A stretch of DNA of 64,000 nucleotides, from the IMG/VR virus record IMGVR_UViG_3300027744_000008; one strand, given 5' to 3'. The stretch is from a virus. Taxonomy: Duplodnaviria > Heunggongvirae > Uroviricota > Caudoviricetes. Shown here piece after piece: positions 22,563-48,432 of the stretch. Within the stretch, counting starts at the first letter, position 1. Every line of letters begins with the position of its first letter. A program made the translations under genes and the position numbers. The notes below the pieces were generated by a model that saw nothing but the letters and a program-made list of their open reading frames with translations, made no database searches and was not told the DNA's origin.

Positions 22563-23638
22563 AAATATATTATTTGCGATGTTACAATCTAGAATTAACA
22601 GAAAATCTAGAATTAGTAGCCAACAGAATTATCGACAGCGACCCCGATAGGATAATAATTTGGTGTGCCCAAGAATATGCCTACTATGAAATATTTGATC
22701 AGTTGTTTGATCTATTAGAAAACTGGGCCACATCTAACAATAAATTAGTTCATTTGATCACCACTTGTAAATCTGGATATGTTAGGCCGTGGATTCTAGC
22801 AGAAGGCACCTACGGTATACTATATAATTTTATGTTTGCACACATGATGGGATTCCCTACTGACCCAAAAATATGCGATAAAAAATTCATATACCTTAAC
22901 AATAACAAAGCACCAAGTCAAATCAATCCCACTAAAATTTTTACTTGTTATAATCACACTGCACATGCCCAAAGAGGACTGCTGGTAGATCTATTGGCAA
23001 GAGACAATTTGATAAAATTAGGCATAGTGACCTTTCACTATCCCGAACAATATCAGTGGATTTATCATAATGGAACAAAACTTCTTGACGAATTAGATTT
23101 CAAATTAGATAACAATAAGTACTCACCCGATATGGTTCCACAAAGTCAAACTTCTGCTTTTATGGACGTAGTTACAGAATCTCGATATGATATCAATGAA
23201 TACTTTATTACAGAAAAAACATTAAAAAGTCTAATGTTGTATAGACCCTTTCTAGTGTTAAGCTGTCAAGGGTTTCACAAATACCTTGTTGACCGCCTTG
23301 GACTCAGATTATACGATGAACTATTTGACTACGGTTTTGATAATGAACCATCGATCAACAATCGCGTTGAAGGCATCATAAAAAACATTAAACATATAGA
23401 AAAAAGTTTTAGCAGTACTACACAGTTAAATGAAATGTATGATTCTATTAGACCAAAATTATTATATAACAGAAATAGAATAGAAGAAATATTTGTCAAC
23501 AAGGATTTAATTGTACCAAAATCACTTAAATTCTTAATGGAACAAGACAATATTACAATAGAAAATGCCGGGTATGCAGACCTACCTGATTATATGATAA
23601 AAATGGGTTGGTCTAATATAAAGTTAAATAATGTATGA
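22559..23638 (+). CDS. putative glycosyltransferase (GT10-like TEK motif)
   Basis: DVVTES...FITEKTLK...RPF...LYDELFDYGFD. Confidence 0.5.
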   Translation: MKIYYLRCYNLELTENLELVANRIIDSDPDRIIIWCAQEYAYYEIFDQLFDLLENWATSNNKLVHLITTCKSGYVRPWILAEGTYGILYNFMFAHMMGFPTDPKICDKKFIYLNNNKAPSQINPTKIFTCYNHTAHAQRGLLVDLLARDNLIKLGIVTFHYPEQYQWIYHNGTKLLDELDFKLDNNKYSPDMVPQSQTSAFMDVVTESRYDINEYFITEKTLKSLMLYRPFLVLSCQGFHKYLVDRLGLRLYDELFDYGFDNEPSINNRVEGIIKNIKHIEKSFSSTTQLNEMYDSIRPKLLYNRNRIEEIFVNKDLIVPKSLKFLMEQDNITIENAGYADLPDYMIKMGWSNIKLNNV

Positions 23639-31591: not shown

Positions 31592-32773
31592 TTGGCTAAA
31601 ACAGTATCTAAATCTAAAGTGGCAGCTAGGGCCAGTGTATCACGTACCAAACGAGATCACAGCCCAGATTGGACTGGACACGAATCTTGGGACAGTGACC
31701 TGTTTACCAAAAAGTTCCGAGAAGCCATGCAGTACTACAATTTTGAGTATTCAGGTAAAGACCTTAAGCCTCAAGTAGTGCGTTGGATGACTTCGACAAA
31801 TGTTAACAAAACACTTACAGAAGCATTTAAGAAAACACGCGATAACCGAAGTGGTGTCACCATGGGCGCCGTTGCAAGTTGTTTGCTCAAAGGTATGCCC
31901 GATGTTCGTACAGATTTCAATCAAGGGCGTAGTACAGTGGCGTGGTTAATGAACGCCATCGAAGATGTTATCCATGCAGGCAAGAGCGATGTTTCCGAGG
32001 AAGAAGTAGTAGATGCTAAACCTGCTACAAATCAACCTAGCATACAAGATCGATTACGTGAAGTTGCCATGCGAATGACTGAAGAAATTGAAGATGCCAT
32101 CGAAAGCTTCAACACAGATCCAGATAATTTTGATCCAAGAGCATTTAAGGTACTAAACTTGCTCAAAGGCAAAGATGCCAAGGCAGCACATGCTCGTACC
32201 ATTCGCGACTTTTACAAACGCAATCTTGAAGAACTTGAAGAACTTGCCAGCGGCAATGCTGACGAACAGTTGCGTGAAGGTTACAAACACCGCAGTAAAA
32301 AACAAATTCTTGCTTTAATTGCCTTTTACAAAGAAGTTAATAGTGCCTGCACTATGTTAATGCAAGAAGCCAAAGTCAATCGAGCACCACGTGCTAAGAA
32401 AGCACAGCCTAAAGAAAAGATTGTGGCTAAACTCAAATACATGAAGACGTTTGAAGCGTTAAAACTTGTATCAGTTAATCCTGCCGATATCATTGGCAGT
32501 AAGGAGTTGTGGATTTATAATACAAAGAGTCGCAAGTTAGGCAGATATGTTGCGGCTGAGTACCAAGAGTTAGGTGTTAAGGGCGCTTCAATTACTGGCT
32601 TCTCCGAAATACAAAGTATTTGCAAGACTCTGCGTAGACCCGAAGAGAAACTTAAAGAATTTAAGAGTGCAGGTAAAGTTGCACTACGTAAATTCTTAGA
32701 CGATATTAATGCCACAGACACTAAAATGAATGGACGCATTAACGAGGAAACCATCTTACTTAAGGTAGCTTAA
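31592..32773 (+). CDS. hypothetical phage protein (Lys-rich, helical)
   Basis: TTG start after an AGGAG SD; long ORF with no recognised domain. Confidence 0.8.
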   Translation: MAKTVSKSKVAARASVSRTKRDHSPDWTGHESWDSDLFTKKFREAMQYYNFEYSGKDLKPQVVRWMTSTNVNKTLTEAFKKTRDNRSGVTMGAVASCLLKGMPDVRTDFNQGRSTVAWLMNAIEDVIHAGKSDVSEEEVVDAKPATNQPSIQDRLREVAMRMTEEIEDAIESFNTDPDNFDPRAFKVLNLLKGKDAKAAHARTIRDFYKRNLEELEELASGNADEQLREGYKHRSKKQILALIAFYKEVNSACTMLMQEAKVNRAPRAKKAQPKEKIVAKLKYMKTFEALKLVSVNPADIIGSKELWIYNTKSRKLGRYVAAEYQELGVKGASITGFSEIQSICKTLRRPEEKLKEFKSAGKVALRKFLDDINATDTKMNGRINEETILLKVA

Positions 32774-32786
32774 GATAAGTATATAC

Positions 32787-32829
32787 AGCGGTCTCAGGCA
32801 TTCAACCCGCTATAGAAATTCTGCATGCC
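32787..32829 (+). ncRNA. preQ1-I-like riboswitch aptamer candidate (H-type pseudoknot) in the queD leader
   Basis: P1 AGCGG(32787-91)/CCGCT(32807-11). Loop TCTCAGGCATTCAAC starts with U and ends AAC. A-rich ATAGAAA follows. Pseudoknot options are CAG/CTG(32821-23) or GGCAT/ATGCC(32825-29). It lies directly upstream of a queD SD. Confidence 0.6.
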
Positions 32830-32853
32830 ATTGCTCATCTTAAGGAGATAACA

Positions 32854-33381
32854 ATGGCAAATTTAAATGAAGTAGGGCATCGTTGGATGTCTGCAAGACA
32901 GTACAAATACACTAGCACCAAAGAGTACCACGACGCATTTCCCTGTGCATACAGACAGTGGAGGGCAGATAGTCATTGTAATTTAATACACGGCTATTCA
33001 TTCTCAATGAAGTTCTATTTTGGCACAGACAACTTAGATGTGCGTAATTGGGCGGCAGACTATGGCGGCTTAAAAGAGCTCAAAACCATTTTAGAAAGTC
33101 AATTTGATCATACACTATTAGTGGCGCAAGATGATCCAGAACTTGAATTCTATAAAGAAATGGAGAAGCGTAAACTAGCCAAACTGACTGTGCTTCCCAG
33201 ATTGGGCTGTGAAGGTCTAGCGGACATGTTGTACAAATATGTAAATGGAGTGTACGTTCCGGATATGTGGGGTCCAAGTGAAGCAGAACGACTGTGGTGC
33301 TATCGTGTAGAAGTACGTGAAACTCAAAGTAACATGGCTTTCCGTGAAGGCCATCGTGAATGGAATGAAGAACTGCTTTAA
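32854..33381 (+). CDS. queD: 6-carboxy-5,6,7,8-tetrahydropterin synthase (QueD/PTPS)
   Basis: HCNLIHGYS, ADYGGLKELK, FDHTLL, EGLA and VEVRET. Confidence 0.88.
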   Translation: MANLNEVGHRWMSARQYKYTSTKEYHDAFPCAYRQWRADSHCNLIHGYSFSMKFYFGTDNLDVRNWAADYGGLKELKTILESQFDHTLLVAQDDPELEFYKEMEKRKLAKLTVLPRLGCEGLADMLYKYVNGVYVPDMWGPSEAERLWCYRVEVRETQSNMAFREGHREWNEELL

Positions 33382-33392
33382 CACCGTTTAAC

Positions 33393-34717: not shown

Positions 34718-34757
34718 GTTTATCTCCTTGTAGGTTATTTATACGGTAAATATACGT

Positions 34758-35315
34758 ATGGCATACAATTTCATTCAAAAATTCATTGTTGAAGGTCGTA
34801 AAGACAAACTCATACAGTTAACATTGCCGTACGATCGCAACGATCTTGATCCTGTGAAATCTAAAGAAACCATAGATTATCACTACGGCACACTGTACAA
34901 AGCCTATGTTGATCGATATAATAAGGGCGAAGGTGATGACGATTTCAACGAAGCTGGTGCATTTTTACATAATATCTATTTTGGTCAACTACAAAAACCA
35001 GAGGGATCCAACAGACCCTATGATGCTATTTTACAGTTCATAGAAAAACATTTTGATACCTTTGATCGTTTCAAAGAAGAATTTGAAAAAACAGCCATGA
35101 AGATACAGGGCAGCGGGTGGGCATACCTAGCAGATGATGGCAAGATCAAAACCATTGTTAATCACGAAATTAGAAAAGATATTGTGTTATTAGTGGATTG
35201 GTGGGAACATGCTTGGGCTCTGGACTATCAAGCCGATAAAAAAAGATATCTAACCAACATATGGAAAATAATAGACTGGAGAATGATCAACGCTAGAGTT
35301 GGTCAAGTGTCTTAA
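34758..35315 (+). CDS. sod: Fe/Mn superoxide dismutase
   Basis: Metal ligands in DYHYG, LHNIYF and DWWEHAW; QGSGWAYL. Confidence 0.9.
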   Translation: MAYNFIQKFIVEGRKDKLIQLTLPYDRNDLDPVKSKETIDYHYGTLYKAYVDRYNKGEGDDDFNEAGAFLHNIYFGQLQKPEGSNRPYDAILQFIEKHFDTFDRFKEEFEKTAMKIQGSGWAYLADDGKIKTIVNHEIRKDIVLLVDWWEHAWALDYQADKKRYLTNIWKIIDWRMINARVGQVS

Positions 35316-35580
35316 GGCTACTCACTGGCATATCCCACACACGGCGTCTTTCGACGCCTTTCTCTTGAGCAAAACGTTTAGCATCACAGAGGTTGCAAAC
35401 GTGATAAAAATTATTACTAATCCTACTAGGACTCATTGATCCCTTGTCACGGCTGAACAACTCAGTACAACAGTCACACCTAAAGACTAACACGGTCTTT
35501 TTTCGTTGGTAACTATGTGAATGTCCGAGCTTACTAGAACGATAATGCGTAGTTGTGACGTATTCTTGTTTGATGAACAT
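35293..35580 (-). CDS. putative zinc-binding hypothetical protein
   Basis: CDCC and CNLC pairs; the ATG is 4 nt after TAAATA. Confidence 0.65.
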   Translation of the reverse strand: MFIKQEYVTTTHYRSSKLGHSHSYQRKKTVLVFRCDCCTELFSRDKGSMSPSRISNNFYHVCNLCDAKRFAQEKGVERRRVWDMPVSSLKTLDQL

Positions 35581-35641
35581 TAATTATTTACATTAAGATT
35601 ATAAAATGTTTATGATAAATATCATATAATAGGGGCTCCTC

Positions 35642-35965
35642 ATGATCAGTGTAACAGATTCTGCTATAGAAAAGATACGCGATATTCTATCAGAAGAAAA
35701 TAATCCTAAACTAAAACTTCGAATGTTTGTTCAGGGTGGCGGTTGTTCAGGATTTAGTTACGGATTTACCTTAGATGAAGACATAGCAGAAGATGACTAT
35801 GATGTAGAAGCCAATGGCATACATGTGTTAGTTGATGCTATGAGCCTACAATACCTAAACAATGCAACAGTTGACTACAAAGATGAATTAATGGGCAGTC
35901 AATTTGTAATAAGCAACCCAAACGCTAAAACTAGCTGTGGTTGCGGTTCTAGCTTCGGAGTTTAA
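35642..35965 (+). CDS. erpA: A-type Fe-S cluster carrier (ErpA/IscA/HesB)
   Basis: [21 protein letters not shown] and [14 protein letters not shown]. Confidence 0.9.
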
Positions 35966-35972
35966 TAGAAAA

Positions 35973-38900
35973 ATGACAAAACAAACAGTTAATATTGGTG
36001 TACAGGGTAACGACGGTACTGGTGATAGTATCCGTGAATCATTCCGTAAAGTCAATGAAAACTTTACTGAGATTTATGCCGCTTTTGGTTTAGAAGGAAA
36101 AATACAGTTTAAAAAATTAGGCGATGTTGATCCTAGTTTATCTATTGCTGGTACGTTTGGCTCTGAAAGCATCCTTATTTCTAATACGGCTGGAAACTTA
36201 CTAACTGCTAAATCACTTAACGCAGGTTACGGTATTAGTATTGACATCGACAATACAGCAAAAACAGTAACTATTAGATCCAACCAATCTAAGTTGATCA
36301 ACGATACATATCCGACACTAGGTGCTCCATTAAATGCTGCTACAAATACCATCGGTAACTTAGCAGATCCGGACGAAACTGCCGTTGCAAACTTTAATAC
36401 AACACACAGTCAATATGGTTGGACTACTACTTTGGCCAAACTAGCAGTCAATAGAGGATATGTTGATGATAATTTTATTAAACTTGTTGACGGCCGTATT
36501 GTCGGACCTCTGCGTGTTCGAGACGAACCCATTGCCCCCGAAGCCGACGATGCTGATTATGACTCAACACTCAGCGGAAATTATCTAAAATCTGAAGCAA
36601 TACAACGTCAGGATGCTGTTTATCGCGGCGGCGATGTTATGCTTGGTGCTTTAACACTAGCTGATCATCCTGGCAGTCTAGCAGGAATCGGAAAACCTAA
36701 AGGTGACGACGACTTACAAGCCGCTACAAAATTCTACGTTGACAACGCAACAATGTACTCTCAAGTCAACTTATTTGTGTCAACAAACGGTGATGACGTA
36801 CAGACTCTAAGTCCTCTGGGGAAAGAAGGTCGAGCTTGGAATTATGCTTATAAAACTATCGGCGCTGCTGCGTTGGCTGCTGAGAACTTTATGAACTTAT
36901 CCAACACAGAGCCTGGTCCATATAAACAGCGAATTGGGTACACCACTGGTGTTGCAGATCAAGATTTAACCTTTAGTAAGGTCACAGGCTATGATTATAT
37001 TGGCGGAAATGTAGGTGATGCAGATTACGTAGATGCCTACACACTTCTAGTCCAAAACAAAGAATTTATTCAAACTGAAGTCGTTGCCTATATCAATAAC
37101 AAATATGTCAACAGTATCGATTTTGATGCTACCGTTTTTTCTCAAGCTATTGCAGATATTGTATCGGCTGCTGCTGATGACCTAGTATTAGACACTAACT
37201 ATCGATCTGCTGCCAAGGCTGCATCATTAGTAGGAATAAATCTAACAGACCAATTAACTACAACCATCGACGGCATCGACTATGCCTTGAGTATCATTCA
37301 GGGATACCAATATAACGAAATCAATAGAAAAGCAAAGATTGCACAGACACTAGATGCTATTGGTTGGGATATTTTATTTGCTAGTAATTACCAAAGTGTA
37401 CGCATGGGGCAGTCATATTTTTATGCTCCTGGCCAAACTACTACAAGTGGAGAATTTGAACAAACTGTAGGTGCTTTAGATTTTATTAGAGATACCCTAG
37501 TTGCTCTACCTAGTCTAGTTGGACAATCAACGGCGATTGTAAGAATGTCTGATAGTATTGATGTCATTAAAAATATTCTTTCTAACGGAGCATTGCAGGC
37601 AGCAAGTTTAGAAATGCCAGTATCCGGTGATTCGCTTTCAGGTTCAGCATCAGTTAGAGATTTGTTATTGGGTAACATTAGTTTTATTCAAGCAGAAGTT
37701 ATAGGTTACCTAGCTGTTGAATATTCAAGTTTGAGCTACAACAAGACCACTTATAAACGCAATATAAAATTAATGATAGAAGCTGTGGTCTATGACATTG
37801 TCTACGGTGGAAATAGTGCTAGTCGTTATGCAGGACAGCAATACTATAACGGCGCAACAGGAATCCTTCAGGCAAACGAAATAGTACCATTTAAGGATGC
37901 TATAGATTATATTGCTCTTATTGCCAAAGATATTGTACAAAATGATACTCCAGCCACTGTATATCAACAATCATTTAGACAGTATACAAATATATCGTTA
38001 ACAGGTGGTGCTGCCCGCACAACAGATATTGATAATAAATTTGCTGTCATTACAACAATTATTAACGATGGAGTTACACAAGGTGCAGTAACTCTTGTAA
38101 ATCCTACAGTAACTAGTGCTAGTCCAACATTATTAGATGCACAAACAGCCATCGATGATGACAGTGGTGATATACAAGATTTGACCATCACTTATATCAA
38201 CGATACATTCGCAGTGATAAATGATAATGCTGCTCAGTCTAGTATTCAGACGAGTTTTGGGATTGTTACTACTACGCTGACTTCAGGGTTAGCGGCATTA
38301 CCGGCTATCACTTACACTAGTCCTGTGAATCTAGCAGCTGGTTTTACCCATGCTAGGGTGTTATTATCAAACAATATCGAATTTATACAAGAAGAAATAG
38401 CAGGATGGATAACCGCTACTAATATAGATTTTTATATTGCCAACACCGCAGTTGATCTTAAGCGTGAACTAAAATATATTGTCGAAGCATTAATGTTTGA
38501 CATTACTTATGGTGGTAATAGCGCCATAGTAGCTGCTACTGATCAGTATATAGCTAATGAGTCTAGCCAATTTTCAACCAATGACCTTGAAATTATTATA
38601 GATGCATTTGATTACGCAAATGAATTATCTAAAAAGATTATAAAAAATCAACAACCCGACAGTCATTATGCCCAGGTAACTGCTGGTAGCTTTGAAATAG
38701 GTACAACCTACACTATTATCGACCTAGGCAGTACTACCAATGGCCAATGGAATACTGCTGCTGGAACTTCTACTACTGTTTATAGTGTAGGAAGTACATT
38801 TGTTGCTGCTGCCGTGGGAACAGGAACTGGTACAGTTAGCTATCAATATAAAAACGCTAGTCTTAGCCAAGGTGCAAGTGCAGAGACTAAAGTTAACACT

Positions 38901-41900
38901 CTATGGTCTGATCTAGCAGGTAAAGTTGGAGACACTGCGGCCATTTCTACTACTGGTCCTACGTATGCCGGGCAAGAGTTTGATACATCATTCCTTGATG
39001 CTCGAACACTGCTATTAACACAAAAATCCATCATTGGTGTTAATGCTGTAACTTATTTAGAAACTACCTATGCTGGCGGGTTCCAATATGCAGAAACTAC
39101 TTGCTTTAGAGACTTAGGATACCTAGTACAGGCTGCGGCATTTGATATATTATTTGACAGCAACTATCAAAGTATTAATGCTGGTAAGAGTTACTATAGA
39201 AATGCCAGTGCCAAGGCTGTTGCTATTGGTACACAGTATGAAGAAACACTGGATGCTATCAACTATGCAAAAACTGTGGCCTTGGCTGTTTTAAATCAAG
39301 AAAACATAGAAATATACCAAGATGCTGTTAATCAATATTTCAACGTAGCACTTGCTCCTTCGGAGACTGCTATAGCTACTATATCGTCTAATTGGACTAT
39401 TGTCACAGACATTATCCAATATGGTCTAGGTGCTAGTTCTGCTAGTTCACCAAATCTAGGTTCTGGTCTTGTTGAAATTAAATTTGACAACGGAGGCAAT
39501 GGATTCGTTGACCAAGGTTATCCGTTGAACAATGAACTTATTGCAGGCAAACTATTATTGGGTGCAAGCTCATTTGCCAACGCAACTGTTATCAGTTATA
39601 CTCCCGGAAGTGAAACTGGTGTTAATGAAACTGACACTATTATAGCAAGACTAAATCTACCAATTGATTTCATTGAAGCTGATGGCGGTGAAGAATTAGA
39701 GTTTGCCGAGAGTGTAAAAGATTTACAAATAACTATCTTTGTTGAGAGTGGTATTTACTACGAAGACTACCCAATTAGACTGGCGGAAAACGTATCAATT
39801 AAAGGTAACGATTTCCGCCGTACAATTATTCGTCCTAGAGATCGAGTGAGTCAAAGTGTATGGGCACGTATTTTCTTCTATCGCGATGCAGTCATGGATG
39901 GTATGCAAATTGGTTACTTAGATGAAGACACTGACTATGCTACTTCAGTATCGGCAACTATATCAGATGTTCTTGGTACCATCACTATTACATTAACTTC
40001 CGGCGTAGTACCCGGTGAATGGGTCGGTCGAGTATTTAAATCGGGCGTTGGTAAAGCTCAGATTGACAGTGTAGCCAACAACTATATGAATTGTACAGTG
40101 ATATATCCATTTGCTGCCGCTGGAGAAATTATCAGCGGCAGTTGGAGCGTATACGGTCCTAAGAATTACGGACGCCACTACTTAACAGATCCATTTGATA
40201 TTACAAGTACTCCTAAGAATAATAGAGATATCGACGTATTCTTATGTAACAATGCAACTCGCGTTAATAATTTATCAGGCCAGGGGCATGGCGGATTTAT
40301 GATGGTGCTTGATCCAGAAGGACAAATTCTAAGTAAATCACCGTACGGTCAAGTTTGCTCAAGTTTTTCTGGATCAATTAATAAACAACGATGGGCAGGT
40401 GGTCAATTTGTCGACGGTTTTGCAGGAAGACTAAAAGGTCAAATTACTGCACTAGATGATCTGCAGGTTGCATCGGGATCACTGCTAGACGGTTATCTAA
40501 ATGTCACTATAACAGGATATAAAAATTCAGGTTTAGATGTACGTGCTCCAAAAACTCCATGTTCGTTCTTCTGGAGAGGCATACGTTATCAAGTAAACAA
40601 TATATTAGACTACAACAGTACCACATATACGCTTCAGGTAGAACTAGATAAAAATACTCCGTACTTGGTCAGTACTCCTGTTACAACCACAGAAACTGGT
40701 AATGGCGGTGGTGGCACTCTAATTACGTTAACTTATCCTGTACAGGTAGGGTCTCCTTACGTCAAAGGAAGTAGTGTACAATTAACTGGCTATAGCCCAA
40801 TCGAGTATAACAGTTATTTTGTAGTTGACTCAAGTTCTCCTACACAAACAACACTGGTAAAATTTGCAGTTGGACAGGCAATACGTGTAGTTGGGACGTT
40901 ACTTGGTGACGCTACAGGAATTAGTGCAGGTACCTACTATATCATTGCAACTAATGGTTCTTCAACATTTACACTGTCAGCTTCTAATAGTGGAGCGGCT
41001 CTAACTACTTCAGGAACTACGGTCACTGGCTTAACCTTTAGTCTAAATATTGCAGGAACATTTGACACTATAAACAGCGTGGCAGTTACAGGTGTTGGCG
41101 GTCAATTTAGTTGTACAACAGAAATTCCAACAGCTGGTATAACAATACATGGCAGCATAAACGGTACTGGTTATAATCCAATTAATATTGAAATGGGTGG
41201 TAACCGAAGTATGCTGGCCAACGACTTTGCCATGATTAACGATCTTGGCTACGCTATTGTTGCAGGCAACGCCGGATTAACAGAACAAGTTTCAACATTT
41301 ACATACTACTGCTATACTCACTATTGGTCATTTAACGGCGGACAGATTCGTTCGGTTGCCGGGTCCAATGCTCACGGTGTATACGGTCTACGGGCCAGCG
41401 GATATGACGTAACAGAATTACCCGACCAAGTTGTAACTGCACAGAATCTTGTACAAGTCATGAAAATCTACAAGAAAAGATTAACTGTTAACAGCATGGA
41501 GTCTGGAGATCTTGAAGTATATGTTTCAAATTATGAATATGCTCCCCAAAATGTCAGTGAGCTAGAAATTGATCATACTAGTTCTGGTGGAACTATAACT
41601 CGATACGAAGTTAAAACAGTATCTGAATCTGGCTATACTACTGATCCAACATTTAATCAACCCGTATATGGAGTTCCGGTTAAAACTGGAACTGGTCCTT
41701 ATTATGTGACATACACCGTGCCTTTACAAACTCAAATAGCTGCCGCTGGTAGCTTTGTAATAGGAGTCACTTACACTATTGTTAGCGTGGGTACAACAGT
41801 CTTTACTACTGTAGGAGCAGCACCAGGAGATGGCGTTGGTGATACTTTTGTGGCAACGGGTACAGGTACTACGGCTACAACAGGTGGTACTGCTAGTTAT

Positions 41901-44900
41901 GTACGTGCTCCTGGCATTGGTGTGTTCTATAAAATTAGTGGTAACAGTAACGAAGAGTACAACAGTAATATTTTATGCACTGCCAGCACTACTACAAGCA
42001 TAACACTAGAATATCAAACAGATCCGGGAACTGTGGGGGTAACTGGTTTTGCACTATTAACCATAGCAAACTATTCGCCCAACGTTGCTAGAGCAACATT
42101 TGCCCTACAGGCGAGTGCTCCATACAATATCGGTGATACCATTTATATTTCTGGAGTAAGTACCGAAGCATGGAATAACTCCTATCTAGTAACAGACTGT
42201 GGCACCACCTATGTGCAATTTAGTTCAGGTGTGGCTACAACTGTTCCTACCAGTGGTTATGTGACTAGTACACTGCTAACTGGCCAAAAAGTTTTATCGT
42301 TGAATTTCAGTACTAGCGGTAATGATAACACCTCAACTGCTGGATTGGCTTATACTTTATTCCATGAGCAGACCGTGTCCGTGAGGGCATTACAGTATAT
42401 TAAATTTACAGGTATTGCCAATGTAAACCCAACTCGACCAAGTACTGCATTACAATTCAACGAAAAGTTGTCTGAAATCTATCGAGTTATATCCTATGGT
42501 CTAACAGATAGTACAGGCAATCAATTAGTTGATGGCACAGCAGTACTAACTACTGATACGTCATTTAACTACATTAAAGTATATACTGACTCCGCTAACA
42601 CAGTTGAGAGTGATCCCAATGATACTTATGAAGCTGTGATCACAGCCACCATTGATGACGGTGCTGGCAGTGCTGGTACTACTATGACAGTCTCAGCCAG
42701 AACTAGTGGCATTATAAGAATTGGTCAAATAATTTCAGGACCAGTTATTTCTATCGGTGACGCTGTTACATTTAGCGGGCTGTTGTCGGGCACTGGAAGT
42801 ATTGTAGGCTATACTAATCCATCAACATATTATGTCGCCAGTACTAATGGCTCAACTACATTTGTGTTATCAGACACATATCAACATGCGTTAGATAACA
42901 CTGACTTTATTACAACTACACCTGGCACTATCATTGCTGCTACTTCAATTGTAGTTACTACTACAGGTGGAAATGTAACTCTCAGTAATGTAGAAACTAC
43001 AGGTTCATCAGGGGAATTTGAATGTGATAACATTAACACTGTGGCAGCTGGATCAATAGTACTTGCACAAATATCTGGCACTAGCGGAGATGTTGGAACT
43101 TATACCGTAAGCATTAGTCAGCTGGTAAGTCCTGCTATAACTATCAGTTGCGGTCCAAAAACTCTAGGATCTAGTATTGGTGATACAAAAATTGCTATTA
43201 GTCCTATTACAGATCAAACTATAGCCGATCAGCTGTCAAAGGGAATTTACATAACCACACTAGGCGGAAGGGTTCACCGAGTAACAGGTTATACTATTAC
43301 TACTGGAACTGTTATTACCCTAACTGGTGCTAGTGGTACTGGAAGTATATGTACATTGACTTTTGCTGAACAAGCGGTGGCTCCGTTTATTGTGGGCGAC
43401 GTAATTGAAGTTGCCTATGCAAGGCCCACTGCGTATAATGGAACGTTTGTGGTCACAGACTGCACTACAACTTCGATTAGTTTCCCAGGTACAGCAACAG
43501 GAATATTAAGTTTACCAATTAGTGCAATCTTATACGGTTCTGGCCGTCCGGCATATATTAATATAGATCCAACTCCTGTAAAAGAAACAGCAGGAAATTA
43601 TGATGAAGGGTTTGCAATTACCAGTATTGCTCTTAAAACAGGTGCCGGACCTTACTACGTAAAATATAATATTCCGAGCCAAGATTGGCCTATTGAAGTC
43701 GACACATACTTTAAGATATCGGGAAATGCATCAACTGGGTATAATGGTAGTCATAACGTAACAGCCGGTGTTTCGTTGTCCACTGTCAGTGTTTCAGGCG
43801 ACGGCACAACGGTTACAATTACCTATGCACCACAATCGTCTGCACCTTTTGCGGTTGACTCTATTGTCACACTAAGTGGTGTAGTGAACTCAGCATATAA
43901 TAAGTCATACACTATTCTTACTTGTAATGCTACTACATTAACTGCTGCCAGCACTGTTACTGGTGCAGCCAGCGTCCAAGGCATACTCAGCCAACAGTCA
44001 GACTCTACTGTTAATACAGTGACCGTGGCCTATGTAGATGATCCAGGTACTTGGATTGATCCACAAAGCATTACTATTACCAGTTTTGCCAGTAAGTCTG
44101 CAGGCTTAGGTACTACTGAAAATGTAGTGTTTAACATTCCATATCAAGCAGTGATAACTGCTACAATTGATGACGGTGCTGGCCTTGCTGGTACTATTAT
44201 GACAGTCTCAGCCGTATCTAGTGGTGTACTAGCGCCGGGACAAACTATTGGTGGTGCAGGCGTTACCGCAGACACTACTATTGTTAATCAGCTAACTGGT
44301 ACTACTGGTAGCACTGGCACCTACACCGTAAGCATTAGCCAACTACTAACTCCAGCGGTGCTTGATAATGTCAATGCCAACACTATACCAACTGTGGGTA
44401 CTAGTGTGTATTACACAATCTATGGTAACAGTAATGTTGACTATAACGGATTAGTCAACGCCACTACTGCCACCATCAACACCATAACATTTAACTATCC
44501 AAGTGATCCTGGAATATATGGCGGTGGTACAACTAAGATAATATCAGGATCTTCAGTAATGCGTAGACCACATACTGGTATCGATAAACCGTTGTCCGCT
44601 GACACTAGTTACACCATGCGTATTGGTTATCCTAAGAATATTGGTGGTCAAGTTACAGTTAAAATTTCAACTACTCGTGCCACAGGACATGACTTCTTAG
44701 ATATAGGTACTGGCGGTTACAATACCACTAACTATCCAAATCAAATCTTTGGTAGTCCAACTATATCCAAAACTGGTATTGTAGGTGAAGTTAAGGAAGA
44801 TGGTGTTGGTCGTGTATTCCACGTAAGCACTGATCAAGACGGTATCTTCCGTGTAGGTCGATTCTTTACAGTTGACCAAGGTACTGGTACAGTTACATTC

Positions 44901-47102
44901 TCAGCTGCTATTGCTCTGAGTAACTTAGACGGTCTAGGATTTAAACGTGGTGTCACAGTCAGTGAATTCTCGACTGATAACACCTTTACTAATAATTCAT
45001 CCGACACTGTGCCTGTTCAAAGTGCCATTAGAGGATACATTGATCGTAGACTAGGTCTAACACATGCTGGCGGCTTTGTATCAAGTGTTAATCGTAGAGG
45101 TCCAGGTTACATGGCGCTAAATGGTGTACTGGCCATGAGCGGCAGTATGAACCTTGGCGGCAACAGTGTTCAAAATGTGGCCAACAGTGTTTTTAGAGTA
45201 AGCTCGGGAACTGACGCAGCCAACGTAGCCTATGTTGACGGTCGTGTTGGATCTTTTGAAACATTTAACCAAATGAGGGATGTTAAGTTTAGTTCGCTGG
45301 CCTCTGGGGATATTCCAGTTTACGATAATGATAACAGTGTTAGTCTTGCTGTCACAAGCAGCATCACCGGAACAGGTATAATTGGCACAGCAACATTTAG
45401 TGTTGCTCAAGTAAGTGCTCCGTTTGCTGTTGAATCATCTATAACAATTTCTGGAGTAACTGGTACAACAGCCTGGAATAATACTTGGGTTGTTATAACT
45501 TGTGATACTACCACAGTAACATTTGCTGCATCTGTTTCAGGTATAGGTGACGGTGGAACAATCAAACAACAGAGATGGAGAAATGTACCGCAACCTACAG
45601 GTGATGTTAATGTTACCTATGACTATGTAACTAAAACTTTAACTTCTACAATTCAAAGTGGAGTGATTGTTAATGCCGATGTTAATGCAAGTGCAGCCAT
45701 TGACCAAACTAAATTATCATTAGATAACGCTGTGGTCACTACTGCTGCAAGTATTGCAGTGACTGGTGCTGTCAGAGTCGGAACTGTTGCTACCTTAACA
45801 TTTGCAACACAAACTGTTGCTCCGTTTGCTGCCGGTGCAAGAATTGTAGTCAGCGGATTTAGTACAACTGCATACAACGGCACTGTTACTGTGTTAGGTG
45901 CACCTAATGCGCCAACAGTAACTACTGTATCATACACCATTGACGTTGCTGCTGTAACACCGGCTGTGTTGGGATCAGGTGCCGTGAAGGCATTAGGTGG
46001 TATTGCAAGTTTTAGCAGTAACAACTTTAGTGTAACCAATGGATTTTTAAGTTTCAAATCAGGTGGTATTTCTTACGCTAACATCCAAGACGTTACAGCC
46101 AACCGTATGCTGGGTAACTTAACTGCTAGTGCTGCTTCAATGTCTGAAGTTACTCCAGAAGCAATCCTTAAGAGATCATACTTTGATCTAGCAACTACCC
46201 AATCTGCAACTACTAGCACTGAATATGTGTATTCATTCACACTTGGTGCCAGCGAAGCTGCAAGTAGCTTTACCAAACTCGAAGCAAGTACAAGCGGTGC
46301 TGATAGCAGTCTTGTAAAAACTTCAGCAAGTGGTGTAATAGATGTCAAAGGACTATACATCGCCGGTGATGAAATTATTGCAGTTGTTGGTGATGTACTA
46401 ACCGTGACAACACCTGGCGGTTGGGATTTTATGAGCATCAGCGGAACTACCTCAGCCAGTGTGTTAACTGTGCCTGTTACCATTGATAACAGCGGCGGCA
46501 TTATGGTCACTACTGATTTAAGAGCAGACGCAGCTGGCAATGGCGCTACTGCTGCTAATCTTATCGGTACTTGGCAAGTTGGTGGCACTAGTAGCATTGA
46601 TCTTGCCAGCAACAATGGTACACTACTGACTAGAACACTAAACACCGGGGATGCTGCAACGACTGGTTCAGTCGAAGGTACTTGGACATTAACTATTGGT
46701 AGTCAATGGGAATCAACATTTGGTGCTGACTTAGCTGAATACTATCTAACCGATGCTGAGTACGAGCCAGGAACGGTGCTGGTATTTGGTGGTTCCGCAG
46801 AAGTTACTACTACTAGTATAGAAGCTGATGCCACAGTAGCAGGCGTAGTTTCAACCAAGGCACAACTTACAATGAATGGTAAGATAAAAAATCAAGGAGC
46901 AGTGTTAATGGCTCTAGTGGGTCGTGTGCCAGTTAAGGTAATAGGTCCAGTTAATAGAGGTGAGATGTTGACCACTAGTACAACTCCAGGGTATGCTTGT
47001 AGGGCTGCTAGTCCCACAATAGGTACTATCATAGGTAAGGCCATGGAAGCAAAGACTACTCCAGGTACGGGCATAATTGAAGTAGCAATAGGAAGACTAT
47101 AA
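35973..47102 (+). CDS. giant (~3709 aa) virion structural protein / long tail fibre with C-terminal intramolecular-chaperone-like domain
   Basis: N-terminal NDGTGDSIRESFRKVNENF baseplate-anchor motif; Thr/Gly/Ser-rich beta repeats; C-terminal GADLAEYY...EPGTVL...ALVGRVPVKV...GIIEVAI. Start set at the ATG at 35973. Confidence 0.8.
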   Translation: MTKQTVNIGVQGNDGTGDSIRESFRKVNENFTEIYAAFGLEGKIQFKKLGDVDPSLSIAGTFGSESILISNTAGNLLTAKSLNAGYGISIDIDNTAKTVTIRSNQSKLINDTYPTLGAPLNAATNTIGNLADPDETAVANFNTTHSQYGWTTTLAKLAVNRGYVDDNFIKLVDGRIVGPLRVRDEPIAPEADDADYDSTLSGNYLKSEAIQRQDAVYRGGDVMLGALTLADHPGSLAGIGKPKGDDDLQAATKFYVDNATMYSQVNLFVSTNGDDVQTLSPLGKEGRAWNYAYKTIGAAALAAENFMNLSNTEPGPYKQRIGYTTGVADQDLTFSKVTGYDYIGGNVGDADYVDAYTLLVQNKEFIQTEVVAYINNKYVNSIDFDATVFSQAIADIVSAAADDLVLDTNYRSAAKAASLVGINLTDQLTTTIDGIDYALSIIQGYQYNEINRKAKIAQTLDAIGWDILFASNYQSVRMGQSYFYAPGQTTTSGEFEQTVGALDFIRDTLVALPSLVGQSTAIVRMSDSIDVIKNILSNGALQAASLEMPVSGDSLSGSASVRDLLLGNISFIQAEVIGYLAVEYSSLSYNKTTYKRNIKLMIEAVVYDIVYGGNSASRYAGQQYYNGATGILQANEIVPFKDAIDYIALIAKDIVQNDTPATVYQQSFRQYTNISLTGGAARTTDIDNKFAVITTIINDGVTQGAVTLVNPTVTSASPTLLDAQTAIDDDSGDIQDLTITYINDTFAVINDNAAQSSIQTSFGIVTTTLTSGLAALPAITYTSPVNLAAGFTHARVLLSNNIEFIQEEIAGWITATNIDFYIANTAVDLKRELKYIVEALMFDITYGGNSAIVAATDQYIANESSQFSTNDLEIIIDAFDYANELSKKIIKNQQPDSHYAQVTAGSFEIGTTYTIIDLGSTTNGQWNTAAGTSTTVYSVGSTFVAAAVGTGTGTVSYQYKNASLSQGASAETKVNTLWSDLAGKVGDTAAISTTGPTYAGQEFDTSFLDARTLLLTQKSIIGVNAVTYLETTYAGGFQYAETTCFRDLGYLVQAAAFDILFDSNYQSINAGKSYYRNASAKAVAIGTQYEETLDAINYAKTVALAVLNQENIEIYQDAVNQYFNVALAPSETAIATISSNWTIVTDIIQYGLGASSASSPNLGSGLVEIKFDNGGNGFVDQGYPLNNELIAGKLLLGASSFANATVISYTPGSETGVNETDTIIARLNLPIDFIEADGGEELEFAESVKDLQITIFVESGIYYEDYPIRLAENVSIKGNDFRRTIIRPRDRVSQSVWARIFFYRDAVMDGMQIGYLDEDTDYATSVSATISDVLGTITITLTSGVVPGEWVGRVFKSGVGKAQIDSVANNYMNCTVIYPFAAAGEIISGSWSVYGPKNYGRHYLTDPFDITSTPKNNRDIDVFLCNNATRVNNLSGQGHGGFMMVLDPEGQILSKSPYGQVCSSFSGSINKQRWAGGQFVDGFAGRLKGQITALDDLQVASGSLLDGYLNVTITGYKNSGLDVRAPKTPCSFFWRGIRYQVNNILDYNSTTYTLQVELDKNTPYLVSTPVTTTETGNGGGGTLITLTYPVQVGSPYVKGSSVQLTGYSPIEYNSYFVVDSSSPTQTTLVKFAVGQAIRVVGTLLGDATGISAGTYYIIATNGSSTFTLSASNSGAALTTSGTTVTGLTFSLNIAGTFDTINSVAVTGVGGQFSCTTEIPTAGITIHGSINGTGYNPINIEMGGNRSMLANDFAMINDLGYAIVAGNAGLTEQVSTFTYYCYTHYWSFNGGQIRSVAGSNAHGVYGLRASGYDVTELPDQVVTAQNLVQVMKIYKKRLTVNSMESGDLEVYVSNYEYAPQNVSELEIDHTSSGGTITRYEVKTVSESGYTTDPTFNQPVYGVPVKTGTGPYYVTYTVPLQTQIAAAGSFVIGVTYTIVSVGTTVFTTVGAAPGDGVGDTFVATGTGTTATTGGTASYVRAPGIGVFYKISGNSNEEYNSNILCTASTTTSITLEYQTDPGTVGVTGFALLTIANYSPNVARATFALQASAPYNIGDTIYISGVSTEAWNNSYLVTDCGTTYVQFSSGVATTVPTSGYVTSTLLTGQKVLSLNFSTSGNDNTSTAGLAYTLFHEQTVSVRALQYIKFTGIANVNPTRPSTALQFNEKLSEIYRVISYGLTDSTGNQLVDGTAVLTTDTSFNYIKVYTDSANTVESDPNDTYEAVITATIDDGAGSAGTTMTVSARTSGIIRIGQIISGPVISIGDAVTFSGLLSGTGSIVGYTNPSTYYVASTNGSTTFVLSDTYQHALDNTDFITTTPGTIIAATSIVVTTTGGNVTLSNVETTGSSGEFECDNINTVAAGSIVLAQISGTSGDVGTYTVSISQLVSPAITISCGPKTLGSSIGDTKIAISPITDQTIADQLSKGIYITTLGGRVHRVTGYTITTGTVITLTGASGTGSICTLTFAEQAVAPFIVGDVIEVAYARPTAYNGTFVVTDCTTTSISFPGTATGILSLPISAILYGSGRPAYINIDPTPVKETAGNYDEGFAITSIALKTGAGPYYVKYNIPSQDWPIEVDTYFKISGNASTGYNGSHNVTAGVSLSTVSVSGDGTTVTITYAPQSSAPFAVDSIVTLSGVVNSAYNKSYTILTCNATTLTAASTVTGAASVQGILSQQSDSTVNTVTVAYVDDPGTWIDPQSITITSFASKSAGLGTTENVVFNIPYQAVITATIDDGAGLAGTIMTVSAVSSGVLAPGQTIGGAGVTADTTIVNQLTGTTGSTGTYTVSISQLLTPAVLDNVNANTIPTVGTSVYYTIYGNSNVDYNGLVNATTATINTITFNYPSDPGIYGGGTTKIISGSSVMRRPHTGIDKPLSADTSYTMRIGYPKNIGGQVTVKISTTRATGHDFLDIGTGGYNTTNYPNQIFGSPTISKTGIVGEVKEDGVGRVFHVSTDQDGIFRVGRFFTVDQGTGTVTFSAAIALSNLDGLGFKRGVTVSEFSTDNTFTNNSSDTVPVQSAIRGYIDRRLGLTHAGGFVSSVNRRGPGYMALNGVLAMSGSMNLGGNSVQNVANSVFRVSSGTDAANVAYVDGRVGSFETFNQMRDVKFSSLASGDIPVYDNDNSVSLAVTSSITGTGIIGTATFSVAQVSAPFAVESSITISGVTGTTAWNNTWVVITCDTTTVTFAASVSGIGDGGTIKQQRWRNVPQPTGDVNVTYDYVTKTLTSTIQSGVIVNADVNASAAIDQTKLSLDNAVVTTAASIAVTGAVRVGTVATLTFATQTVAPFAAGARIVVSGFSTTAYNGTVTVLGAPNAPTVTTVSYTIDVAAVTPAVLGSGAVKALGGIASFSSNNFSVTNGFLSFKSGGISYANIQDVTANRMLGNLTASAASMSEVTPEAILKRSYFDLATTQSATTSTEYVYSFTLGASEAASSFTKLEASTSGADSSLVKTSASGVIDVKGLYIAGDEIIAVVGDVLTVTTPGGWDFMSISGTTSASVLTVPVTIDNSGGIMVTTDLRADAAGNGATAANLIGTWQVGGTSSIDLASNNGTLLTRTLNTGDAATTGSVEGTWTLTIGSQWESTFGADLAEYYLTDAEYEPGTVLVFGGSAEVTTTSIEADATVAGVVSTKAQLTMNGKIKNQGAVLMALVGRVPVKVIGPVNRGEMLTTSTTPGYACRAASPTIGTIIGKAMEAKTTPGTGIIEVAIGRL
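42651..44213 (+). repeat. near-identical 48-bp intragenic direct repeat (42651-42698 / 44166-44213)
   Basis: attgatgacggtgctggc(ag/ct)tgctggtacta(c/t)tatgacagtctcagcc, 45/48 identical; encodes IDDGAGxAGTxMTVSA. Confidence 0.85.
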
Positions 47103-47410
47103 TGACACAAAAACAAATAAACATTGGTAGCAGTCCCAACAAAGGCGACGGTGATCCGTTACGTACAGCATTTGGTAAAATTAACGATAACTTCGACGAA
47201 CTATATTTACTCACTGGGGTAGTTAGTTTAACGGAGCTGGCACAAGACTATGCGGCAGAAATGTTAGTAAACGGAGTACATGCTGGTGTGAGTGTAGCAT
47301 ATAATGATACCAATAATACGTTAAATATTACAGTAGAACAAGATATCGATGGAGGTGCTTCCTCCACGTTTTTCGACGACGACTTAACCATAAACGGGGG
47401 CGGAGCATAA
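47102..47410 (+). CDS. short baseplate/fibre-anchor protein
   Basis: INIGSSPNKGDGDPLRTAFGKINDNFDELY N-terminal motif shared with 35973 and 56108. Confidence 0.7.
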   Translation: MTQKQINIGSSPNKGDGDPLRTAFGKINDNFDELYLLTGVVSLTELAQDYAAEMLVNGVHAGVSVAYNDTNNTLNITVEQDIDGGASSTFFDDDLTINGGGA

Positions 47411-47411
47411 C

Positions 47412-48419
47412 ATGGCACGTAGAATACAACTAAGACGCGACACAGCGGCAAACTGGGCTAGCACAAATCCAGCGCTGGCGCAGGGTGAAATAGGTATAGA
47501 CTTAACCAGTAGTAAGATTAAAATAGGTAACGGTACTACATTATGGAATGCACTTGCCTATTGGGATGACGCAGACATTAATATTCCAAATGGTCGTGCG
47601 AATGTAACCGGTACTGCTAATACGGTTGGCGGTGGTGCAACGGTCGGAGTACGTAGTATATTAGCAATTGACTCAGCATTTGGTAGCAATGACGTAAATG
47701 CTCCAGCAAGCGCACAAGCAATACGTGGTCGTGTTACAGGTAGCAATCTAACTAAAACACGTAATTATGTAGCCGGTGTAACCGGTCAATACTTAGTTAC
47801 TGGTACCAATGCAAGCGAATTTATTAACACTGGTTTACTTGGTGTCGTAGGAGACCAAACAACTACAGCAAATGCGGCTGTTGTTGCTTACTTAGACGGT
47901 GACGGTGGATTGACTACCGCTGGTTCAGCATATGGTGTCAGTATGAAAAACTCAACTCCTGGATCAGGATTTGATTACGGTCTTGATTTACAATTTATTG
48001 ATTTAAATGTAGCCGGAACAACTGCCCCATTCAAGCAAGCAGATATTCGTTTTAATAACGGAGCCTTACAAAGAGACACTGGCACAGTTTCATGTCCAGG
48101 CAACGCCAGTACTGTGGTTTACACAGCGTCAGGTCAAGGTCAACACACTATAAGATTATTGATACAGGTCGAAGGTAGCGAAGGTGCGCCAGAGGGATGG
48201 GACACACAAGCATGTGAAATGATCATAGCCAAAAGTTTTAGAACCGATGACGTAGCCGCAACAGTGTATGCTGTTGTACATACTAGTGCGGCACCATTGG
48301 CAACATTTACCGCACAGTGGAACGCACTGACCAGCAGAGTAGAAGTACTGTGCGCCACGCCCAGTGCCAACTCAGTATACGTTAGAACATTCGCAACAGA
48401 AATTACAACAGCAGATTAA
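47412..48419 (+). CDS. tail fibre/spike with Mtd_N (hyaluronidase N-terminal)-like domain
   Basis: RIQLRRDTAANWASTNPALAQGEIGIDL...KIKIGNGTTLWNAL.Y. Confidence 0.8.
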   Translation: MARRIQLRRDTAANWASTNPALAQGEIGIDLTSSKIKIGNGTTLWNALAYWDDADINIPNGRANVTGTANTVGGGATVGVRSILAIDSAFGSNDVNAPASAQAIRGRVTGSNLTKTRNYVAGVTGQYLVTGTNASEFINTGLLGVVGDQTTTANAAVVAYLDGDGGLTTAGSAYGVSMKNSTPGSGFDYGLDLQFIDLNVAGTTAPFKQADIRFNNGALQRDTGTVSCPGNASTVVYTASGQGQHTIRLLIQVEGSEGAPEGWDTQACEMIIAKSFRTDDVAATVYAVVHTSAAPLATFTAQWNALTSRVEVLCATPSANSVYVRTFATEITTAD

Positions 48420-48432
48420 GGAATAATATAAC

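Follow-up and report, generated by a model that had tools for sequence, protein, structure and literature searches.

A conserved, covarying pseudoknot in the leader of a phage queD-like gene: a candidate ON riboswitch of preQ1-I-like form

Comparison among related phage sequences indicates that the leader of a queD-like gene in an uncultured lake phage (Caudoviricetes; IMG/VR record IMGVR_UViG_3300027744_000008, of which the 64,000-nt stretch analyzed here is referred to as the window) contains a real, conserved cis-regulatory pseudoknot, which makes up 43 nt (32787-32829) of the 72-nt leader and has so far been encountered in contigs of uncultured (freshwater) phages only. The pseudoknot covaries, it carries conserved unpaired bases, and it overlaps with a helix that sequesters the ribosome-binding site. 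The element is probably a metabolite-sensing riboswitch of the ON type that resembles preQ1-I in form, where we infer the binding and the identity of a ligand, the switching direction and the start of the RNA. Features found in riboswitches in general are present, i.e., a covarying aptamer, invariant unpaired bases, a platform based on alternative pairing and a location in the 5' leader, and the eight invariant unpaired positions are counted in favor of a candidate ligand pocket. Against the ON-riboswitch reading stand the association with a single gene family, which also fits a protein-binding operator, and the fact that ON switches are uncommon for biosynthetic genes. The failure to match any Rfam family, the weak fold of the single sequence, the short overlap in the commonest platform type and an adapter junction inside the hairpin in one metatranscriptome contig (see below) also count against it. 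More tentatively, the element may represent a virus-only riboswitch class, derived from or convergent with preQ1-I, that senses an intermediate of the H2NTP/CDG/preQ0 type and activates translation of the queD-like gene.

To our knowledge, riboswitches of phages are few, and the known ones are copies of bacterial classes. If the above proposal is correct, a conserved, covarying aptamer that is missed by every catalogued model and has been found in uncultured freshwater phages only would imply that viruses evolve metabolite sensors of their own. The preQ1-like fold would then have its first member of the ON type, a metabolite sensor evolved in phages, and an ON-type design would be added to the smallest known riboswitch fold, perhaps with a new ligand specificity. 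The element would also offer a handle on the question of why large phages carry FolE, QueD and QueE, and the 43-nt aptamer is small enough for direct binding assays and crystallography.

Architecture and conservation of the leader element

The features of the leader are collected in Table 1. All sequence strings that the initial annotation had listed for this region were found where it had placed them. The single leader sequence is unremarkable in terms of its minimum free energy (MFE; z-score -1.59), and in the MFE fold P1 is unused, while a strong hairpin (32826-33/32852-59) covers the Shine-Dalgarno (SD) sequence and the AUG; the significance of the element thus follows from comparison among relatives rather than from the fold of a single sequence. 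A covariance model finds one copy in the 64-kb window (67.8 bits) and no second one.

Table 1. Coordinates of features in and around the queD leader (numbering of the window)
Feature	Position	Strand	Remark
Upstream 401-aa ORF	end = 32773		
Motif ATAAGTA	32775-32781	+	T4-type late-promoter-like; predicted start ~32787, 5 nt past the motif
P1 5' strand, AGCGG	32787-32791	+	partner 32807-11
Loop between P1 strands, 15 nt	32792-806	+	
L1 plus linker, UCUCA	32792-32796	+	C32793 invariant; linker length variable
P2 5' strand, GGCAU	32797-32801	+	partner 32825-29
L2, UCAAC	32802-32806	+	3'-terminal C32806 invariant
P1 3' strand, CCGCU	32807-32811	+	partner 32787-91
L3, AUAGAAAUUCUGC	32812-32824	+	A-rich first half, then conserved UCUGC
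Segment ATAGAAATT-CTG-C	32812-24	+	DNA spelling of L3
P2 3' strand (switching strand), AUGCC	32825-32829	+	partner 32797-801; 32826-29 also in sequestering helix
SD, AAGGAG	32842-47	+	
Sequestering hairpin	32826-32859	+	UGCCAUUG (32826-33) with CAAUGGCA (32852-59)
Inner stem of sequestering hairpin	32837-41 with 32845-49	+	hairpin as a whole buries part of SD (32842-47) and start codon (32854-56)
queD-like gene, PTPS fold, 175 aa	32854..33381	+	ATG at 32854

Related loci were retrieved from IMG/VR by a search with the QueD-like protein only, which gave 592 related stretches, of which 80 (82-91% amino-acid identity) were kept. Their leaders align with that of the window from P1 through the start codon. 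A covariance model (R1), built from 24 leaders (alignment A2), detects one copy of the element in 70 of the 81 sources (the window and the 80 loci), always before queD; the sources that lack a copy either are truncated or have queD abutting the QueE-like gene without a leader, i.e., where queD abuts queE the aptamer is missing. A DNA core pattern yielded at least 120 additional IMG/VR contigs and, among the matches listed, queD directly follows the match in 111 of 119. Of the other eight listed matches, five are separated from queD by an extra gene, which is a cupin gene, an unknown 243-aa ORF or an ORF insertion of 280-290 aa, and the last three are explained by a chance match within a coding sequence, a contig end and a variant queD start. 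At one protein-retrieved locus (L066), a methyltransferase gene is found between the aptamer and queD. Among the loci and the matches listed, the element was seen only before queD or queD-containing operons, and an association with several different pathway genes was not encountered. As a separate observation, an inserted ORF of ~290 aa separates the aptamer switch from queD in L171 (4922-5800) and L179; judging from its sequence, this ORF may be an insertion of the homing-endonuclease type.

Outside these contigs, a degenerate pattern gave chance-level results in bacterial and archaeal genome contigs, where, among the matches listed, a P1 complement of any kind was present in 3 of 120 and the loop was missing throughout. 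Model R1 had no match in five genomes behind the loci or in 2 x 151 genomes from two phyla; this search of cellular genomes was made without a cellular positive control, so that the result reads as "not found in those searched" and not as "absent". With the aptamer as query, blastn returned noise only (E~1-9) from 50,697 deposited phage records, for the 3-kb region no DNA match was found, and R1 did not match the queD loci of four cultured phages, where these genes are leaderless. A description of the element was not found in the literature searched.

The helices were assessed in alignment A3, which has 52 distinct rows, all from protein-retrieved loci, and P1 was absent from the model behind this alignment. 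Overall, 94.9% of the cells are paired, compared to 35-47% when the partners are slid, with P1 paired in 99.6% and P2 in 89.6% of the cells. Two-sided changes are found at 6 of the 10 pairs (3 of the 5 in P1), any of the covariation measures was matched in 0 of 500 shuffles, and alignment A2 gives the same picture. Judged by these alignments, the element is an H-type pseudoknot formed by P1 (32787-91/32807-11) and P2 (32797-801/32825-29). The variants of P1 are AGCGG/CCGCU, ACCGG/CCGGU, AGAGG/CCUCU, AGUGG/CCACU and UGCGG/CCGCA, and those of P2 that preserve pairing include GGCAU/AUGCC, GGCA/UGCC, GGCG/CGCC, GGUG/CACC, GGCU/AGCC, GGCUU/AAGCC, GACUU/AAGUC, GACGC/GUGUC and GGGC/GCCC. Because the GGC/GCC core is common to all P2 variants, a swap test on the longest P2 helix is uninformative (4.06 vs 3.93), and column-wise counts were used instead; in terms of duplex energy, the P2 strands modestly favor their own partner (-5.3 vs -3.9). 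A pairing of CUGC with the P1 5' strand, which appears in the MFE fold, was rejected as CUGC is unchanged beside the P1 variants ACCGG and AGAGG.

The initial annotation had proposed a structured cis-regulatory RNA in this leader with a preQ1-I-like topology. Both proposals hold: the element is conserved in the majority of sources, its pairs covary, and compensatory changes occur in both helices of the H-type pseudoknot. The details of P2 had to be revised, i.e., CAG/CUG (32795-97/32821-23), which had been assigned as P2, is unconserved and missing in most relatives, while GGCAU/AUGCC, regarded earlier as a deviation that offers an alternative pairing, does pair but as the true, covarying P2. 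The assignment of L2 and L3, as well as the suggestion that a U replaces the ligand-contacting A, fall with the proposed P2. An additional pairing of the loop UCUC with GAGA in the SD region is present in no fold and finds no comparative support; L1 is a generic pyrimidine run.

In addition to the helices, eight unpaired positions are invariant in all 52 rows, namely C32793, U32802, C32806, A32814, A32816, A32818, U32820 and C32821, as would be expected for a binding pocket. C32803 and A32804 are each conserved in 51 of 52 rows, and U32813, A32817, U32822, G32823 and C32824 in at least 90%. G32791, C32806 and C32807 (52/52 each) correspond to a G-C floor and the C before the P1 3' strand. The first position of L1 varies (U in 21, C in 23 and A in 8 of 52; U32792 in the window), whereas the second (C32793) is C in 52/52. 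The window deviates from its relatives at 32805, where it has A compared to U in 44/52, and at the unusual G32815, which is C in 33/52. In the alignment of 126 unique aptamers, L3 positions 4 and 6 are changed to A and U exclusively in aptamers whose third P1 pair is A-U or U-A rather than C-G. This co-change, which is carried by few lineages, hints at a placement of L3 in the P1 minor groove. Two singletons among the same 126 aptamers have a joint change at L1 position 3 and at the C of CUGC; both sets of co-changes possibly reflect tertiary contacts.

Transcript start and expression platform

The ATAAGTA motif upstream of P1 has one mismatch to the core of the TATAAATA-like late box, and the T4-type late promoter is quoted as 5'-TATAAAT-3' (PMC9004378). 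The location of the element just downstream of such a motif, pointed out in the initial annotation, is a recurrent feature: 79% of 126 unique leaders have TAA[AG]TA in the 45 nt that precede P1, compared to 2.4% of random 45-nt windows, and its spacing from P1 is mostly 5-11 nt. Some relatives instead have TTGACA-17-TATAAT, which ends ~8 nt before P1. From this enrichment and spacing of upstream motifs, a start of the queD RNA at P1 or slightly before it is plausible. Of the 76 TAA[AG]TA copies in the window, 23 are located <=100 nt upstream of genes on the same strand. Where a copy is intergenic, the motif-to-ATG distance is mostly ~20-30 nt, and the queD leader with its 72 nt is long by comparison.

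At other genes of the window, TAAATA boxes are found 4-5 nt before the starts, i.e., at the SOD-like gene 34758 (34747-34760), at the B12 radical SAM gene 23635 (23625-23637) and, on the minus strand, at 35581-35590 before the ORF 35293-35580. This arrangement suggests leaderless or near-leaderless late mRNAs at genes 34758, 23635 and 35580. A readthrough or frameshift pseudoknot serving the ORF upstream of the queD leader was rejected as the frame closes 13 codons on.

Assemblies of lake metatranscriptomes (four runs from four studies) contain contigs that span the leader and queD, e.g., 32714-33392 and 32640-33368, and one such contig starts with adapter at 32792-95, inside the hairpin; contigs of this type cannot show RNA starts or strands, and DNA may have been present. 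Two of the lake contigs begin with Illumina adapter exactly at 32792-32795 and 33463, respectively. These junctions could mark recurrent fragment or RNA ends, which contigs cannot define.

The link between the pseudoknot and translation would be provided by UGCC (32826-29), a 4-nt overlap that is common to P2 and to an 8-bp helix with CAAUGGCA (32852-59), which contains the AUG. The calculated energies are -13.0 kcal/mol for the sequestering hairpin, -5.5 for P1 and about -5.3 for the P2 duplex. P1 together with the sequestering hairpin yields -18.5, compared to about -14 for P1, P2 and the residual hairpin, so that the sequestering fold wins unless energy is added by tertiary contacts or a ligand. 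An 8-bp arm of the window type is reached in just 1% of shuffles. When the aptamer is held folded, the mean unpaired probability of the SD increases from 0.31 to 0.59 in 53 unique leaders, with an increase in 40 and a decrease in none, while the accessibility of the AUG changes both ways. The arms found among relatives include UGCCAUUG/CAAUGGCA, UGCCAUCU/AGAUGGCA, UGUC(A/G)UC/GAUGGCA and CCUAUG/CAUAGG, i.e., at least four platform designs are distributed among the lineages, each of which reuses the P2 3' strand; in the commonest type, which is not that of the window, the overlap is ~2 nt only.

Because the P2 3' strand competes with the helix that sequesters the SD and AUG, the wiring reads ON, i.e., opposite to that of the preQ1 gene-off switches, and from this modeled competition we infer an ON direction of switching. 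The feedback repression that had been suggested initially does not agree with this wiring. The proposed mechanism is as follows. The queD mRNA would start at or just before A32787, with the aptamer at its 5' end. Without ligand, AUGCC would be taken by the more stable helix 32826-33/32852-59, which together with the inner stem would bury the SD and the AUG, and translation would be off. A small ligand would bind between P1 and P2, where it would be read by C32806 and conserved bases of L1 and L3; the likeliest candidate is a compound with a guanine- or pterin-like face from the GTP -> H2NTP -> CPH4 -> CDG/preQ0 route. The bound ligand would lock P2, UGCC would leave the sequestering helix and the ribosome site would open, thereby turning translation on. 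This model is akin to the adenine riboswitch of Vibrio vulnificus add, which is a translational ON switch: in both cases the 3' strand of an aptamer helix alternatively pairs with the SD/AUG region, and the ligand frees the ribosome site. The add riboswitch differs in that its aptamer is a three-way junction with another ligand pocket and that it is bacterial rather than viral.

As a side observation, in the commonest leader type (e.g., L003:2590-2600, L010 and L090) the loop of the SD hairpin reads TGCTATAAT, TGCTAAAAT or TGCTATTAT, i.e., an extended -10-like box located between the aptamer and the SD, which is absent from the window. These leaders could conceivably have an internal promoter that circumvents the switch.

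Alternative readings and relation to known RNA elements

A translational operator, where the 5' pseudoknot is bound by the QueD-like protein or by another protein of the phage, which then sets the level of translation, is a rather unlikely alternative, for which the pseudoknot in the leader of the T4 gene 32 mRNA, where gp32 acts, serves as a model. Both elements are H-type pseudoknots at the 5' end of the mRNA of a T4-type phage, and control of translation, which is the function of the gene 32 leader, is proposed also for the phage element. The restriction to queD and queD operons among the loci and the matches listed, the failure to find the element in the sampled bacterial genomes and its location where a transcript from a predicted T4-type late promoter would have its 5' end all fit such an operator. 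However, the T4 pseudoknot is a nucleation site for protein, located far from the SD and without a competing sequestering helix, and the alternative helix of the phage element would work protein-free. Furthermore, the element is very small with many invariant single-stranded bases, its architecture matches that of a known metabolite aptamer, and no candidate binding protein is conserved beside it.

It is unlikely that the element is a divergent but true preQ1-I riboswitch, which upon binding of preQ1 or preQ0 would repress queD by feedback. In preQ1-I (RF00522), with examples in B. subtilis (queC), T. tengcongensis, C. antarcticum and E. coli, U6 at the first L1 position reads N9 of preQ1. The L3 is A-rich and runs straight into the P2 3' strand, with the last A contacting the ligand, and the ligand-bound fold hides SD bases or makes a terminator, i.e., the gene is turned off. 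The defining features of types I-III are here taken from PMC11625349, which describes a strictly conserved specificity C 5' of the P1 3' strand, a G-C pocket floor and the preQ1 classes as gene-off switches. With these aptamers the phage element shares the small H-type topology with a 5-bp P1 closed by G-C, a P2 in which the hairpin loop pairs with the 3' tail, an invariant C right before the P1 3' strand (C32806, at the position of the specificity base), an A-rich start of L3 (AUA.AAA) and a link to queuosine/7-deazaguanine genes, and the core from P1 to L3 resembles real preQ1-I aptamers side by side. In most phage members, P1 is preceded by UC and the tail C is conserved, as in preQ1-I type I (PMC11625349); the window has AC.

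In contrast to preQ1-I, the position equivalent to U6 is variable in the phage element, and the second L1 base (C) is invariant. In addition, the loop is enlarged, and the 13-nt L3 carries an invariant UC, then a conserved UGC ahead of P2, such that AUAGAAAU is followed by UCUGC, and C32824 instead of A precedes the P2 3' strand. P2 contains no SD bases and, as outlined above, competition with the sequestering helix predicts ON. Searches with covariance models agree with this distinction. At gathering thresholds, Rfam 15 has no match in the whole 64 kb, and the Rfam 15 preQ1 families gave no match to segments of 201 nt and 83 nt at E<=10, which speaks against the Rfam preQ1 membership that the initial annotation had raised and in favor of its view that the element is a variant rather than a canonical preQ1-I. 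As a positive control, RF00522 (gathering score of 39 bits) recovers genuine aptamers in two Paenibacillus genomes with 55 and 45.5 bits. Conversely, the model of the phage element does not match these Paenibacillus preQ1-I loci, also with filters off. Detection thus fails in both directions as RF00522 misses the phage element and the phage model misses true preQ1-I. The phage element is, moreover, seen only in uncultured phage contigs. Its fold is of the preQ1-I type, but membership in preQ1-I is not demonstrable.

An improbable alternative is a structured leader that acts without a ligand, e.g., by affecting mRNA stability, by a fold that responds to temperature or Mg or by timing translation kinetically on late transcripts. 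Two alternative folds are available without the need for a ligand, and contigs from RNA libraries cover the leader and the gene together, but stability alone does not readily explain the invariant unpaired bases of L1, L2 and L3 or the preservation of P2 through many sequence changes. A chance hairpin or a terminator of the upstream gene, as might be considered given the weak z-score and the hairpin 13 nt past the upstream stop codon, is effectively refuted by the strong conservation and covariation in many contigs with different upstream genes, and a U-run after the hairpin is missing.

The queD-like gene, its pathway and the surrounding window

The queD-like product passes the Pfam PTPS threshold (3.5e-14), scores 32.4 bits with the NCBIfam QueD model (TIGR03367, CPH4 synthase) compared to a cut-off of 89, and is 47-55% identical to QueD of cultured phages with 7-deazaguanine clusters. 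Residues C42, H46, D85-H86 and E156 align with C27, H31, D70-H71 and E110 of E. coli QueD, and the catalytic Cys, Asp-His and Glu are retained. Two of the three zinc histidines of the E. coli protein, H16 and H33, are replaced by Tyr33 and Tyr48 in the window protein. Both Tyr substitutions are common to four relatives from uncultured contigs and to three of the four cultured-phage QueDs (ACP17, R5C and BUDD), while QueD of the cultured phage Me-ZS1 has Phe at the first of these sites. The clusters that hold the queD genes of the cultured phages contain QueC, QueE, FolE and TGT or some of these, and these queD genes have no leader.

Genes that neighbor the aptamer-bearing genes include, among the matches listed, FolE at 104 of 199 loci, a QueE-like gene at 81 of 199 and a YhhQ-type preQ0/preQ1 transporter at 14 of 199; these neighbors point to the pterin/7-deazaguanine pathway. 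Within the 64-kb window none of the three (FolE, QueE-like, YhhQ) was found. FolE and QueD are present in two near-complete relatives (98% and 100% by CheckV), in which Pfam TGT was not found and QueC was matched weakly and in part at most. In four whole IMG/VR records (L050, L046, L038 and L005), two of which are 98-100% complete, GTP cyclohydrolase I is carried together with the aptamer, and in L046 FolE precedes the aptamer by ~290 nt. A search of these four records for Pfam TGT/DpdA found none, and QueC gave one weak partial match; the pathway in these phages may end with CPH4/CDG or depend on host enzymes.

The first part of the window (1-36000) is dense in auxiliary metabolic genes, which encode an ABC1 kinase, a beta-ketoacyl synthase, FabA, a fatty-acid desaturase, a Rieske oxygenase, ClpP and an ATP-dependent DNA ligase, as well as a twitch radical SAM and a B12 radical SAM protein, sugar-nucleotide enzymes, UvdE, an Fe/Mn SOD and an IscA-like protein. 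Further downstream, at 35937-54378, ORFs of 3721 aa and 1981 aa are found.
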